This document shows positions 5,557 to 11,480 of a stretch of 12,877 nucleotides of DNA, piece after piece. Position numbers and translations under genes: made by a program. Origin of the DNA: Candidatus Iainarchaeum sp. (GTDB lineage: Archaea > Iainarchaeota > Iainarchaeia > Iainarchaeales > CSSED10-239); contig JAQVRT010000019.1 of NCBI GenBank assembly GCA_028700905.1, forward strand, positions 1 to 12,877. Direction: 5' to 3'. The notes below the pieces were generated by a model that ran no database searches, was not told where the DNA came from, and saw only the letters and a program-made list of their open reading frames with translations. The number at the start of each line of letters is the position of its first letter. Position 1 is the first letter of the stretch.

Positions 5557-5815
5557 GTTAATTAACCTCTTGTCTTCTAATCATAGAAACTAAAAATCAA
5601 TAACCTATCTATTACTGTTTTTAAATAATTAAAACAGCCGAATAAAAATAGGAAATTTATAAAAGTAGATTTTTTATATAATATAATTATGAACCGAATT
5701 GCTTAAAAAGATTTGTTTTTATGTAGTAATTACCAATAAAAGTAAATTATTTATAAAATTTTAAAATATTAAAGAAATTATAAAAACTCTTTAAAAAAAT
5801 ATAATTTTTTATAAA

Positions 5816-5867
5816 TTGGCACCAACAATGCCAAAAAAAGATAAATTATTGGCACTAGCAGTGCTAA
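5816..5867. repeat. Two adjacent small hairpins sharing the direct repeat ATTGGCAC, downstream of the RT stop
   Basis: Hairpin 1 is TTGGCA (5816-5821), loop CCAACAA, TGCCAA (5829-5834): 6 perfect bp. Hairpin 2 is TTGGCAC (5849-5855), loop TAGCA, GTGCTAA (5861-5867): 7 bp including one G-T pair on the plus strand. Both are preceded by ATAAATT, and ATTGGCAC recurs at 5815 and 5848 (33-nt spacing). They are the only G/C-containing islands in a 356-nt ORF-free spacer. Confidence 0.5.
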
Positions 5868-5912
5868 GTAAACCCAAATAATATTTTTAAAGTTAAATTA
5901 AAAATAAAGATA

Positions 5913-6923
5913 TTATTTAATATTTAAAATATTTAAAAGCCTATAACAATTTGCATGCTTTGCATAACCTAAAAAAGAAAAAAGAGAAGACCTGAAGTTA
6001 AGTAAAGGCATTTTCTTTTGTTTTAGTAAATAATTATTTTTATTTTGTCTTTTTACAAATCTTTTAATGTTTGATTTTCTTAATCGTACAAAAGAGGAAA
6101 ATACCTTATACCCTAAAAAGTCAACACCTTTAGAAGTTAGGTTTGTATAACTTTTATTTTTAGGAACTGCTAAAAACAAATCTTTTTTTAGAAATAATTT
6201 TATTTTTCTTCTAAAAACCTTTAAATCTCTTTTAGAATCAGAAAATATTAAAAAATCATCAACATACCTATAATAATGTTTAATTTTTAAAGTATGCTTA
6301 ACAAATTGATCTAATTGATTTAGATAAATATTTGCAAACAATTGAGAAGTTAAATTTCCAATTGGGATTCCTTTTTTATTGTTTAAAGAAGAAAAAGAAT
6401 AACTATCTATTATTTGATAGATTATAGATAATAGTTTTTTATCTTTAATTTTTTTATAAATTATACTTTTTAAAACATCTTTATCTATTGAAGGAAAATA
6501 TTTCTTAACATCTTGTTTTAAATAATATTTTGGAGGGTTTTTTGATTGAACTAATTTTTTAATTTCTAAAAAACCTTTAAAAGTGCCTTTTCCTTTTCTA
6601 CATGCAAAAGAGTTGTTTATAAAAGATTTATCAAAGATAGGTTCAATGATGTTTATAATTGCATGTTGAACAACAACATCTCTAAAACAAGGGGCACTAA
6701 TTATTCTTTCTTTAGGTTCATATACCTTAAAGTTTCTGTATTCTGAAAAAGTATATTCTTGGTTTATTAACTCTTCTTGTATTAAAAAAAGTTCTTTTTC
6801 AAGATTGGTTGTAAACTTTAGAATATATTTTTTATTAGGGTTTGATTTTCTTGCTTTTTTATAGGCATTAAAAATATTTTTAAAAGAAGTGAATTCTTGC
6901 CAAAGGTTATTGTATGATTTCAT
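5913..6923 (-). CDS. Reverse transcriptase, diversity-generating retroelement (DGR) clade
   Basis: 336 aa with RT motifs in order. They are YRNFKVYEPKERIISAPCFRDVVVQHAI (motifs 1/2), ACRKGKGTFKG, KQDVKKYFPSIDKDVL (motif 3), GIPIGNLTSQLFANIYLNQLD (motif 4), YRYVDDFLIF (motif 5, YVDD catalytic box), VDFLGYKV (motif 7), then LRKSNIKRFVKRQ and a C-terminal SFLGYAKHANCYRL. The [ILV]GxxxSQ form of motif 4 is the DGR hallmark. The block-by-block resemblance to Bordetella phage BPP-1 Brt, as I recall it, also favours DGR over retron or group II intron RTs. There is no maturase/X or endonuclease domain. Confidence 0.85.
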   Translation of the reverse strand: MKSYNNLWQEFTSFKNIFNAYKKARKSNPNKKYILKFTTNLEKELFLIQEELINQEYTFSEYRNFKVYEPKERIISAPCFRDVVVQHAIINIIEPIFDKSFINNSFACRKGKGTFKGFLEIKKLVQSKNPPKYYLKQDVKKYFPSIDKDVLKSIIYKKIKDKKLLSIIYQIIDSYSFSSLNNKKGIPIGNLTSQLFANIYLNQLDQFVKHTLKIKHYYRYVDDFLIFSDSKRDLKVFRRKIKLFLKKDLFLAVPKNKSYTNLTSKGVDFLGYKVFSSFVRLRKSNIKRFVKRQNKNNYLLKQKKMPLLNFRSSLFSFLGYAKHANCYRLLNILNIK

Positions 6924-7157
6924 TTTTAAAAAGCCTTATTTAAAGTTAAGAGTTATTACAGATTTCTTTTTACATACTATAAAAATACTAAATGTAATAA
7001 CTTATCTTTATATTTGATTTTTTAACATAAAAACAAAATAGTTTTTATGGCACACATTATGTGCAATCAAGAAACATTTTACAGATGTAGTTTTTTAAAA
7101 TATTCGCTTTATATGTTTTTTTAAAACAAAAAAATAAACATACAAACTCTGATAAAA

Positions 7158-7180
7158 CCTCATTATTAAAAATAATAAGG
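7158..7180 (-). other. Stem-loop 5 nt downstream of the target-gene stop codon (candidate DGR VR-flanking hairpin and/or transcript terminator)
   Basis: Arms 7158-7167 and 7171-7180, loop 7168-7170. In minus-strand sense it reads CCTTATTATT-TTT-AATAATGAGG: 10 bp with one U-G wobble. It is followed in that sense by TTTT (complement of 7154-7157). Confidence 0.45.
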
Positions 7181-7185
7181 AGAAA

Positions 7186-8595
7186 CTACTTGACACAGCG
7201 CAGGCCGATGCGGCGGTCCCGGGAACCAGGAGTGTCGAGCAAGGTCAGGCTCAAGACCCCAGCATCAGTGCCATGGCCCCAGTGACCACCGCGCAGAAAC
7301 GCGTATTCAGCAGTAGAAGTGTCTCCAACATCACTATAAGTATAAATTCTACCAACACCATTATCTGTTGCATTATAAGTATTACTTGTAAGTAAAAATA
7401 AATCTTTATACTTTAAAGTGGTATTACCTAAATTATCAGAAGAAATATATTGGTTTTCTCCACCACCTTTGGAATAATCAAAATAATTAAAACCAGTAAT
7501 AAAGTTACTATCATCGGCATTATTAAAACCATCAGGTTGATCTTTTCTTTGTATTGTGTCACTTGTCCATTGTCTTACATTACCGGCTAAATCCCAAATA
7601 ACTTCACCATTAGTTAAAGTTAAGGTTCTTCTTTGACTCCCTGAGCTTTGGCCAGTTCCTGCATAACCATTTGTATCAATTGAAGCTTCTAAAGCTCCTC
7701 CTGGTGTTCCATCGTTATGTCCTGAATAAATATATCCCTGACCAACAGTTCCAGAAGACCAGTTAGATGGAACTTGTTCTATGTTTCGTACAATAGTCAT
7801 CCATTCATTGTTTGTTATTAAATGACCACCTATAGCTTCACAAGCAGCAATAGCTTCGGTTTGGGAAATTCTTGTAACAGGAGAGCCTTCAGGAGTTGAT
7901 ACTAATGTACCAGGAGTAGGGCATAATTCATAACTATAAGTATTATAGGTTAAAGAACCGGTATTACAATCAGGATAATCTGCTACAAGATTTCCTTTAC
8001 CATCTCCATTAACATCCATTTTCATCTCATATTTTGAAACACAAAAACCACCATTTTCATTCATAGTTCCATATAAATGATTACCAGGAACAGGAATGTA
8101 ACCTTCTGGACAAGAAGAAGGTTGTTTTATGGTTTGTAAAATATTATTCTTAGTGATCATTCTGTCATTATCAAGATAAAAAACAATATTTAAATTGTCT
8201 TCTAAAATACCATGGTCAATTACGGCAGATTGGTTTGCAGTTATTGTGATTGGAGGGTCTATAGGGTTAATATTAGTATTACCAAACAAACTATAACCAG
8301 TTATGGTTAGAGAAGTGTGAGGAGAACCATAAGGAGGTTTATATTCTAAAATGGTACGACCATTTATTGAGGTTTTTAAATGTAAATAAAAAGAAGTTTC
8401 TGATTCAGTGAAAATCTCAAGACCAGAGGCTTTGGAAAGAGAATCATTGGTAAAACCTTTTCCCCAAGAAATAATTATACCAATTATAGCAACAGCAACA
8501 ACAACTAAAAGAATAGTGGCTATAAGAGGACTTATAGCTTTTCTTTTTTTAAAAAAAGTTATAAAATAATTACCTTTAATCATAATAATCTGCAT
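7186..8595 (-). CDS. DGR target (variable) protein: archaeal type IV pilin-like N-terminus plus C-terminal FGE-sulfatase (SUMF1) / C-type-lectin-fold domain
   Basis: 469 aa. The N-terminus, KKRKAISPLIATILLVVVAVAIIGIIIS, matches the archaeal class III signal and Pilin_N pattern ([KR]-A-[IV]-S-P-[VIL]-I-x-x-[IVL]-L). From about residue 160 it shows FGE-sulfatase blocks: CPEGYIPVPG, GFCVSKYEM, ISQTEAIAACEAIGGHLITNNEWMTIVRN, GNVRQWTSD and a terminal LRGGHWG...RIGLRCVK. It lies directly upstream of the DGR-type RT on the same strand. The start is ambiguous between M1 (8595) and M5 (8583). Confidence 0.8.
   Translation of the reverse strand: MQIIMIKGNYFITFFKKRKAISPLIATILLVVVAVAIIGIIISWGKGFTNDSLSKASGLEIFTESETSFYLHLKTSINGRTILEYKPPYGSPHTSLTITGYSLFGNTNINPIDPPITITANQSAVIDHGILEDNLNIVFYLDNDRMITKNNILQTIKQPSSCPEGYIPVPGNHLYGTMNENGGFCVSKYEMKMDVNGDGKGNLVADYPDCNTGSLTYNTYSYELCPTPGTLVSTPEGSPVTRISQTEAIAACEAIGGHLITNNEWMTIVRNIEQVPSNWSSGTVGQGYIYSGHNDGTPGGALEASIDTNGYAGTGQSSGSQRRTLTLTNGEVIWDLAGNVRQWTSDTIQRKDQPDGFNNADDSNFITGFNYFDYSKGGGENQYISSDNLGNTTLKYKDLFLLTSNTYNATDNGVGRIYTYSDVGDTSTAEYAFLRGGHWGHGTDAGVLSLTLLDTPGSRDRRIGLRCVK
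7189..7326 (-). other. Putative DGR variable region (VR) including a GC-rich IMH-like 3' end: the last 46 codons of the target gene
   Basis: Hand count gives 81 of 130 nt G+C (62%) for 7191-7320, against 13/60 in 7131-7190 and 19/60 in 7321-7380. Coding-strand adenine is only 16/130. There are no AAY codons, and the codons around the invariant Trp are all NNY (CAC TGG GGC CAT GGC ACT GAT GCT). The island maps exactly onto the ligand-facing C-terminal segment (RGGxW...G[FL]RC) that is the VR in CLec-fold DGR targets. Confidence 0.7.
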
Positions 8596-8708
8596 ATATA
8601 CCTATATAAAAATATATTTAAATATAAGAACAATATATTTATAAAGATAATTAAAAGAGATAAATAGTTTAAAAAATAATAAATTTTAAATTAAATAAAG
8701 AAAAAAGA

Positions 8709-8924
8709 TTATTTTGTTTTTTTAACAAAATAATCAATATCTTTTCCAATACTTGAAAAATCAACCTTAACATTATTTACAGCCATTTTATCTAAGAAAT
8801 CTTTATAAGATATACCTGCAATATCTGCAGCCTCTGATAAAGACAGGCTTTTATTTTCATAAGCCTTAAAAACAATAGCAAGCCTAGATTCATCTATATT
8901 AGAAGTAATATTTGTTTTACTCAT
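8709..8924 (-). CDS. UPF0175-family-like small helix-turn-helix protein (antitoxin-like)
   Basis: 71 aa. LAIVFKAYENKSLSLSEAADIAGISYKDFLDKMAVNNVKV resembles the UPF0175 pattern (...Y..G.lSlg.AAelaGms...F...L...gi). No PIN or other toxin ORF is adjacent. Confidence 0.5.
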   Translation of the reverse strand: MSKTNITSNIDESRLAIVFKAYENKSLSLSEAADIAGISYKDFLDKMAVNNVKVDFSSIGKDIDYFVKKTK

Positions 8925-11195: not shown

Positions 11196-11480
11196 TTATT
11201 TTTTCTTTTTTAATGGTTTTTTTGCATTTGAAACAATTTTGTCTGCAAGTTCACTTGTTTTTTCAGAAAAAACTGAAAGTCTCATAGTAACCCATACAAC
11301 AATAATAGTTACAATTATAGCATATAAAAACATTGCAATAATTGTTCCTGCACTTCCAAAAATTGAAGTAAATAATGCTTTAATAGCATCATTCCATGCA
11401 AGAGCTGCAACAAGACCAAAAGCACTTGTCATCAAAACATTTATTCTTTCAATAACTTCTTTTTTCATATTTTTATTCAT
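11196..11480 (-). CDS. Small membrane protein, two predicted TM helices, lysine-rich C-terminal tail
   Basis: 94 aa. It has two hydrophobic segments (VLMTSAFGLVAALAWNDAI and TIIAMFLYAIIVTIIVVWVTM) and a basic tail ending in KKPLKKKK. It is preferred over the overlapping antisense ORF 11239-11493 because of its helix pattern and its sensible start context. Confidence 0.6.
   Translation of the reverse strand: MNKNMKKEVIERINVLMTSAFGLVAALAWNDAIKALFTSIFGSAGTIIAMFLYAIIVTIIVVWVTMRLSVFSEKTSELADKIVSNAKKPLKKKK

Follow-up and report, generated by a model that had tools for sequence, protein, structure and literature searches.

How did an archaeal locus that carries the reverse transcriptase (RT) and the target gene of a diversity-generating retroelement (DGR) come to lack the template from which the target would be rewritten? 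The locus lies on a contig of 12,877 bp, analysed whole and referred to here as the window, from an NCBI metagenome-assembled genome (MAG) of Candidatus Iainarchaeum sp. (DPANN). As deposited, it comprises an intact RT gene, a target gene ending in a variable repeat (VR) and a spacer between them, with neither a template repeat (TR) nor the accessory genes found in its relatives. The locus is a DGR by descent, and the deposited sequence is either a truncated derivative, lacking TR and Avd and with its VR fixed, or an intact DGR that was mis-assembled. A first-pass annotation, made from the letters of the window, had called it a DGR of unusual architecture. The RT, the fold of the target, the VR and the descent of the locus bear out the first half of that description, but not a complete DGR, as TR and both accessory genes are absent from the window; the architecture itself is explained by a loss of about 1.1 kb between VR and TR that left one hybrid repeat, and represents no new design.

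The standard for comparison is provided by related loci, in which the cassette has a constant order: a target gene with a 120-nt VR at its 3' end, a gene for a 128-aa protein, a bAvd gene, a 120-nt TR, a spacer of about 260 nt and the RT gene, with some 280 nt of conserved non-coding DNA between the VR and the 128-aa gene. This canonical arrangement is seen as a textbook cassette in L001, a 236-kb contig whose synteny with the window extends to both sides, and also in L012, in L005 (a 698-kb JGI contig) and at two loci, L003 and L013, of Candidatus Forterrea multitransposorum, a member of the phylum Iainarchaeota (DPANN) with a complete genome (CP045477.1; L013 at about 24.8-28.7 kb). In the syntenic loci L001, L012 and L013, the full cassette lies between the same UPF0175 and FKBP genes. 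Mismatches between TR and VR affect 16 of 31 A-sites and 0 of 87 other sites in L001, 20 of 31 and 0 of 87 in L003, and 12 of 30 and 1 of 91 in L013, and all of those in L012 fall at A; the bAvd proteins match their Pfam model at 2e-21 to 3e-22. Judged from these sequence patterns, the cassette family is a DGR family beyond reasonable doubt.

Within this family, L013 is, on position and sequence likeness, the true orthologue of the window cassette. It occupies the same slot (TruD, Hel308, UPF0175 ... FKBP, proteasome subunit, aCPSF1), its spacer is 95-100% identical and its target has the same ...EYAFLRGG...GLRCVK ends; the target is the same pilin-like protein with a C-type-lectin (CLec) fold, at 79-82% amino acid identity, and the window VR fits the L013 TR best. 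L013 differs in that it still has the region downstream of the VR, along with the 128-aa gene, bAvd and TR; an insertion sequence (IS) lies upstream of it, and AAA_14/DUF4143 and HicBA follow downstream. The L013 RT (P0130) is just 78% identical to that of the window, because the body of the window RT is of L001 type. The first-pass annotation had recommended curating any DPANN example of unusual architecture; the element is already on record, an intact orthologous cassette being public in CP045477.1 and on many metagenome contigs. The exact Forterrea target P0137 (L013:10001-11374), VR included, occurs on 24 contigs from several samples, and its VR shows no turnover between those samples at consensus level, despite the complete cassette.

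Set against these cassettes, the window is missing the conserved elements downstream of the VR, the 128-aa gene, the bAvd gene and the body of the TR. A repeat finder (seed 6) detected no second copy of the repeat in the contig, and the best hit of an ungapped scan of both strands that forgave mismatches at candidate adenines scored 95/125 with just 30 true matches, which is chance level. Likewise, tblastn with the relatives' 128-aa and bAvd proteins returned chance matches only (E of at least 0.17). No TR adjoins the RT and spacer in the window, where the target open reading frame (ORF) runs out in a hybrid copy of VR type directly before the spacer, and no TR/VR pair with adenine differences was found within the contig, such pairs being present in the orthologous cassettes. 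The limits of the gap are given by blastn alignments to L001, of which the one covering window 11495-7183 stops where the L001 VR stops and the one covering window 7299-1 sets in with the L001 TR, so that they overlap in the repeat only. The absent stretch between the repeats measures 1082 nt relative to L001 or 1113 nt relative to L013, and the target ORF remains intact with the same stop codon. As deposited, the element would be unable to diversify its target in cis, because the template, bAvd, the 128-aa partner gene and the conserved VR-downstream sequence are missing.

The last of these losses concerns a flank (TTTTTGAAAAA...GACGGGTGAGACGGCAAGACGG in the relatives) in which a GC-rich block, GACGGGTGAGACGGCAAGACGG, stands invariant about 40 nt past the VR stop in every canonical relative and at both paralogous loci, and from which the window has nothing of this block; a perfect inverted repeat, GCAAATTTTTTT...AAAAAAATTTGC, follows about 120 nt beyond it. 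By its conservation, the region may be a candidate VR-side cis element, acting in target recognition or as a terminator. As for the lost 128-aa protein, its gene (L001:8806-9192; L013:11681-12067) has no Pfam match in L001 or L013, and a distant counterpart in L002 (146-556) gives a weak Avd-like (23S_rRNA_IVP) match; the protein may be a diverged paralogue of Avd.

The one repeat that remains is, by alignment, a VR/TR hybrid: in multiple alignments its 5' flank and body are of VR type and its 3' flank, the spacer, is of TR type. The 28 nt at its 3' end are the longest exact stretch common to VR and TR, as seen in the L013 VR in register, the L013 TR and the window. Because VR-specific bases end at 7211 and spacer-specific bases begin at 7182, a crossover or an assembler jump would have taken place within 7183-7210. 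Compared with the L013 TR, the window repeat differs at 17 of 30 A-sites and 4 of 91 non-A sites (Fisher p 2e-9). The replaced adenines became G (8), C (7) or T (2), and in the window body the AAC/AAT codons of the TR turned into CAC, GGC, CAT, GAT, AGC, ACC, CTC, GAC, TCC, GAC, CGC and CGC. The compositionally aberrant segment that had been flagged at the C-terminus of the target is, on this pattern, a genuine VR. Its composition (63.6% GC and about 11% A at 7183-7303, versus 32% GC in the rest of the target gene, 22% in the RT gene and 25% in the window) can be traced to the template, since the TR itself is 52% GC, with scaffold codons that avoid A and adenines concentrated in AAC/AAT codons, and adenine mutagenesis would raise this to the 64% of the segment. 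Horizontal transfer as the source of the GC-rich end was rejected, the same GC-rich TR and VR being conserved between AT-rich flanks in all relatives.

The number of non-A differences depends on the TR used for comparison, being 11 against L001, 8 against L003 and 4 against L013. One of these 4 falls at a TR site that is polymorphic in the relatives (C in L001 and L003, T in L012 and L013), and another lies at window 7234 (repeat index 70), where the T of an AAT codon is replaced by C in the window and by G in the L013 VR; this recurrent non-A change adjoins adenines. A long drift after loss of the TR, which would make the repeat a 'fossil VR', had been considered on the strength of the 11 and 8 differences from the L001 and L003 TRs, and was abandoned on the 4 differences from the orthologous L013 TR. 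Adenines are kept at 13 of 30 TR A-sites in the window, compared with 18 of 30 in the L013 VR, 15 of 31 in L001 and 11 of 31 in L003.

The spacer downstream of the hybrid repeat, presumed to form the structured 3' domain of the DGR RNA, contains blocks conserved across both paralogous loci and 4 predicted pairs with compensatory changes, a weak signal drawn from four sequences, and Rfam and tRNA scans of the region matched it to no known RNA family. A hairpin directly after the TR stop, read by eye from the alignment and absent from the RNAalifold consensus, keeps its pairing despite base changes, with CCTTATT-GAAA-ATAAGG in L001 (9727-9750), CCTTATTATT-TTT-AATAATGAGG in the window (7140-7182) and equivalents in L003 and L013.

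On its motifs and overall likeness, the RT is of DGR type. The motif-4 form [I/L/V]GxxxSQ is represented by IGNLTSQ at residues 188-194 (nt 6342-6362) and the catalytic-site motif by YVDD at residues 220-223 (nt 6255-6266), as the first-pass annotation had read them in this 336-aa protein, and Pfam RVT_1 matches at 1.8e-22. The top match among solved structures is the 328-aa RT of entries 8ub7-8ube (8ub7_A), aligned end to end over RT residues 2-329 with an E-value of 1.2e-49. We take this protein, which the database entry names just 'Reverse transcriptase', to be Brt of the Bordetella phage, an assignment with which its aligned stretch GIPIGSLTSQLFANVY...YMDD agrees; the Brt-like character proposed at first sight is upheld to that extent. 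The next matches are group II intron RTs, with a best E-value of 2.6e-21. Homologues of the RT number in the thousands, the closest being the RT of the L001 cassette (96% identity), and relatives found in a scan of IMG/VR all had at most 41% identity, apart from one partial sequence at 49%. The ratio of nonsynonymous to synonymous divergence (dN/dS) between the window RT and that of L001 is 0.14 at a dS of 0.14; relaxed selection on an orphan RT was rejected, this value being not above those of intact-cassette pairs (0.19-0.22).

The target protein consists of three parts, a pilin-like N-terminus, a beta-sandwich and a domain with the fold of CLec proteins and the formylglycine-generating enzyme (FGE). 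The N-terminus contains a class III signal and helix of archaeal type IV pilin/archaellin type (KRKA-ISPLIATILLVVVAVAII, residues 17-40), scores 22.6 bits against NCBIfam TIGR02537 arch_flag_Nterm (cut-off 20) and resembles the archaeal type IV pilus 8fk7, weakly by phmmer (8fk7_A, 0.006) and with a Foldseek value of 2.4e-4; the target is predicted to be an archaeal type IV pilin-like protein. At the other end of this upstream, same-strand protein, the first-pass annotation had recognized an FGE-sulfatase/CLec-fold domain and had proposed structure prediction with a Foldseek comparison as a check. Both lines agree with it: Pfam FGE-sulfatase matches residues 234-360 at 37.2 bits (gathering threshold 23.3), and an AlphaFold2 model (62 homologues in the alignment; mean predicted local distance difference test score, pLDDT, 86.8) retrieves the DGR variable protein TaqVP first (2.5e-10), followed by FGEs, Mtd and TvpA. 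Catalytic FGE has a copper-binding Cys pair in its C-terminal subdomain, C336/C341 in the human enzyme. No such pair is present in the last 200 residues of the target, which contain one Cys (C467, in GLRCVK) and in which the equivalent region is the VR, coding for a typical RGGxW...G(L/F)RC(V) end. The name given to the target by NCBI, 'SUMF1/EgtB/PvdO family nonheme iron enzyme', reflects fold, not function. At 90% identity, the window target clusters with no other protein. Among the listed DPANN homologues, dozens can be aligned with it over the full length, and several are named by their sources 'flagellin-like' or archaellin/type IV pilin N-terminal. More distant homologues of 662-684 aa, possibly bacterial, have this FGE-sulfatase domain together with PF07963 (N_methyl), a bacterial pilin motif; DGR-varied pilin tips may occur outside DPANN too.

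How, then, was the middle of the cassette lost? We lean towards a real, recent deletion between the VR and TR direct repeats, holding it somewhat better than an even bet. The locus would descend from a canonical DGR in which, by analogy with the Bordetella phage DGR, the RT with Avd would copy TR RNA into cDNA, misincorporating opposite adenines, and the cDNA would overwrite the VR. Such rewriting would vary some 12 codons for the ligand-binding face of a protein on the surface or pilus, which in a DPANN cell living as an episymbiont would plausibly be an adhesin. Within the cell, the two direct repeats would then have recombined, with the crossover in their 28-nt identical 3' end, and about 1.1 kb would have been lost, leaving the target ORF in frame, its current VR sequence fixed and the RT gene as a still-intact orphan. 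In support of a deletion, the same MAG includes a 3396-bp contig that carries MDD4050208.1 (a partial RT), two genes and MDD4050211.1 (a target), and fits a canonical paralogous cassette, a reading that we infer from accession order and size; the equivalent 28-nt repeat would have been resolved there by the same assembly. Among the listed places of the exact Forterrea target protein, five of five are canonical and 11 more have the same neighbouring genes, which is informative because collapse of a contig would leave the coding sequence for this protein unchanged. Both sides of the window junction are of one (L013-like) type, and the slot in which the element resides is a hot spot of insertions and deletions, with DGR-less strains, strains lacking AAA_14/HicBA and one IS insertion. 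The sequence by itself does not discriminate a deletion from an assembly collapse, because both routes yield the same product, and several observations weigh against a deletion. The junction is known from the deposited contig; the RT shows no decay (full length, dN/dS 0.14) and the spacer is as close to that of Forterrea as noted above, so that a real deletion would have to be recent; the window is a patchwork of likeness to different strains; and the excess of non-A differences no longer holds as a sign of a long-frozen VR, given 4 against the L013 TR, not 11. A further point comes from a second fused contig, L004 (NPIE01025101.1, 2391 bp), in which VR and spacer are joined just as they are in the window. 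To either side of this junction, its nt 1281-2391 match the intact L001 strain with 100% identity, and its nt 1-1280 belong to the paralogous (L005-type) locus, including the 5' half of the paralogous target; on this composition it looks like an assembly chimera, or else a recombinant deletion variant. If L004 is a chimera, assemblers can jump at the 28-nt repeat.

An assembly collapse we regard as a serious possibility, yet a less probable one: the assembler would have passed from the VR body through the 28-nt shared stretch into the spacer, the organism keeping a full cassette with its DGR intact and possibly active, and the 1.1 kb in between would have been dropped as an orphan contig too short for binning. 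The undecayed RT and spacer, the mosaic structure of the window and L004, with its second switch to the paralogous locus, all fit this account, as do the co-occurrence of several strains in the population and the presence of two paralogous DGR loci per genome with long near-identical stretches; the other DGR contig of the MAG ends right within such a stretch. Hypervariable VRs also entail low coverage per variant. Conversely, the final k of current multi-k metagenome assemblers generally exceeds 28 nt, although it may differ for this assembly; the equivalent repeat at the paralogous locus appears to have been resolved in the same assembly; and it was resolved in all listed assemblies of the Forterrea orthologue. 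That the TR-less arrangement is functional seems improbable to us. In that event the second DGR of the MAG would act on the VR in trans and rewrite it, or the hybrid repeat would template itself with Avd supplied in trans, and there is something to recommend this: a second cassette, apparently with accessory genes, in the same MAG, and a spacer and RT that are intact and under purifying selection. DGRs serving several VRs are known, and so are cassettes without avd (26% in a survey), Avd being common, not universal, at 74% of DGRs (PMC5758913). The VR, however, is closer to the cis (L013-type) TR, with 4 non-A mismatches, than to the type found at the second locus, with 8, and it differs from the latter at 2 of the last 8 nt; the conserved VR-downstream block of all relatives is gone. 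The retention of 13 of 30 adenines is not below that of ordinary VRs and so gives no sign of repeated self-mutagenesis, and the membership of the second contig in the same cell depends on binning. The partial RT on that contig is identical over 128 aa to the Forterrea RT P0123, and the second DGR of the MAG means either that each genome has two DGR loci, like that of Forterrea, or that two related strains were mixed in the bin. Self-templating is conceivable because, with respect to spacer and RT, the hybrid repeat has taken the place of the TR. A true self-templating DGR, in which read-through of the target mRNA would yield a DGR RNA templated by the VR, with Avd from the second DGR, and in which adenines would burn out with no reset from an invariant TR, is more doubtful still. 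In a milder version of the idea, VR/TR crossover would serve in nature as a recurrent off-switch by which a useful variant of the adhesin becomes frozen, as in the window and L004. We give practically no credence to the view that the locus never was a DGR and combines an unrelated RT (of a retron, group II intron or defence system) with a sulfatase-maturing FGE. The NCBI name of the target points that way, as does the best NCBIfam model for the RT, a group II intron RT/maturase (143 bits against a cut-off of 300), but the Brt-like full-length match is 28 orders of magnitude better than that to group II RTs, the target lacks the FGE Cys pair and has a DGR variable protein as its nearest fold, and the adenine-specific TR/VR pairs of the orthologous cassettes, accompanied by bAvd, refute it.

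Table 1. Coordinates of the features discussed (window positions unless another locus is named).
Feature	Position	Strand	Details
RT gene	5913-6923	minus	336 aa, intact; ORF call; NCBI MDD4049834.1
Similarity breakpoint	6840-6860		RT 5' end, about codon 25; sliding identity
AT-rich gap between RT ORF and target ORF	6924-7185		262 nt
Spacer homologous to the relatives' TR-to-RT spacer	6924-7182	minus	Intact; 95-100% identical to L013:12611-12860
28-nt stretch common to VR and TR of the orthologous cassette	7183-7210	minus	ATCGGCCTGCGCTGTGTCAAGTAGTTT plus one base
VR-type body of hybrid repeat	7211-7303	minus	Encodes ...AFLRGGHWGHGTDAGVLSLTLLDTPGSRDRR...
Target (variable protein) gene	7186-8595	minus	469 aa; NCBI MDD4049835.1 starts at 8583, 465 aa
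Target, predicted pilin-like N-terminus	residues 17-54; nt 8434-8547		KRKA/ISPLIATILL...
Target, beta-sandwich (immunoglobulin (Ig)/FN3-like)	residues 71-153; nt 8137-8385		Foldseek FN3 domain matches
Target, CLec/FGE-fold domain	residues 160-469; nt 7189-8118		Pfam and model
UPF0175 gene	8709-8924	minus	Pfam UPF0175 1.4e-8; context, outside the DGR
GC-rich block GACGGGTGAGACGGCAAGACGG in relatives	L001:8559-8590; L013 about 11415-11450; L005:1494-1520; L012 about 6700-6735		

The surroundings of the element (Table 1) place it in a variable genomic slot of an archaeal chromosome. The genes around the RT and target are all on the minus strand in the ORF list, and the neighbours, which Pfam searches run on the syntenic relative assign to aCPSF1, a proteasome subunit, a class I CCA-adding enzyme and a Hel308-type helicase, agree with the archaeal setting recognized at first pass and with a DPANN host. 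The slot corresponds to window 5557-8708, between the FKBP gene and the UPF0175 gene that forms its left edge and keeps its position in L001, L012, L013 and L006-L009. Its content differs by strain: an IS (DDE_Tnp_1), the DGR, AAA_14/DUF4143 and HicBA in Forterrea; the DGR only in L001 and L012; AAA_14/DUF4143 only, with no DGR, in L006, L007 and L009; and the DGR without its middle part in the window. The slot is an insertion and deletion hot spot within the population. The antitoxin-like UPF0175 gene has no adjoining toxin partner in the window, and its dN/dS against L001 is 2.5, a value derived from very few changes. The nearest relative also switches along the window, as seen by sliding identity in a five-sequence alignment, from L013-like at 7184-6848 (95-100%) to L001- and L012-like at 6847-5899 (93-100%), with a further switch at about 5700-5880, beyond which positions 5677 to 1 match the DGR-less strains L007 and L009 at 99-100% identity. 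Divergence from L001 at synonymous sites ranges from a dS of 0.00 in the proteasome subunit up to 0.59 in Hel308. This mosaic would reflect either a recombining population or a strain-merged assembly; homologous recombination has been reported for this population (PMC5905446).

Among characterized systems, the prototype is the DGR of Bordetella phage BPP-1 (Mtd, Avd, TR, Brt), with which the archaeal elements share full-length RT homology with the [I/L/V]GxxxSQ and Y-x-DD motifs, a CLec-fold target with a C-terminal VR and, in the cassettes of the relatives, the order of target/VR, Avd, TR, spacer and RT along with adenine-specific TR-to-VR differences. They differ in host (a cellular archaeon, not a phage), in the nature of the target (type IV pilin-like, not a tail fibre) and in the extra 128-aa accessory gene of the archaeal cassettes, and in the window TR and Avd are absent. 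The CLec/FGE-type fold with the VR at its C-terminal face is shared with TaqVP (5vf4), TvpA (2y3c) and Mtd (1yu0-4), and TaqVP aligns in sequence over the VR too (RGGDWGNGGVAGL against RGGHWGHGTDAGV), whereas in the window an archaeal pilin-type helix and an Ig/FN3-like sandwich come before the CLec domain. Groundwater metagenomes have yielded DGRs of DPANN and candidate phyla radiation (CPR) organisms (Paul et al. 2015 and 2017, cited in PMC6349945 and PMC5758913). As these are summarized there, they resemble the present element in having ultra-small episymbiont hosts, chromosomal cassettes and CLec targets proposed to serve in cell-cell attachment; the DPANN lineages named in the review passages are Nanoarchaeota, Pacearchaeota and Woesearchaeota, whereas the DGR of the window belongs to Iainarchaeota (Diapherotrites). 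An analogy, and only that, is offered by the type V pili adhesins of Bacteroides (bioRxiv 10.1101/2024.11.15.621889), which, as presented in that preprint, are pilus-associated adhesive proteins at which a DGR is aimed, as here, in other organisms and on a bacterial type V pilus as opposed to an archaeal type IV-like one. In the literature searched, we found no published report of a VR/TR crossover deletion, and the Forterrea genome paper contains no mention of DGRs.

As a DGR, the locus adds little, intact orthologues being public and one of them part of a complete genome. Its value lies in being a clean example of DGR loss, real or apparent: one crossover between direct repeats 1.1 kb apart removes TR, Avd and the VR-side flank, and leaves the target in frame with one variant fixed. 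Where surveys of DGRs tally 'RT without TR/VR', real deletions should be told apart from repeat collapse. The locus also illustrates how a GC-rich island in a 25% GC genome can be explained by adenine avoidance in the TR together with A-to-N mutagenesis, not by horizontal transfer. Finally, a predicted pilin-like target with a CLec tip fits the proposal that DPANN cells vary their host-attachment structures by means of DGRs.

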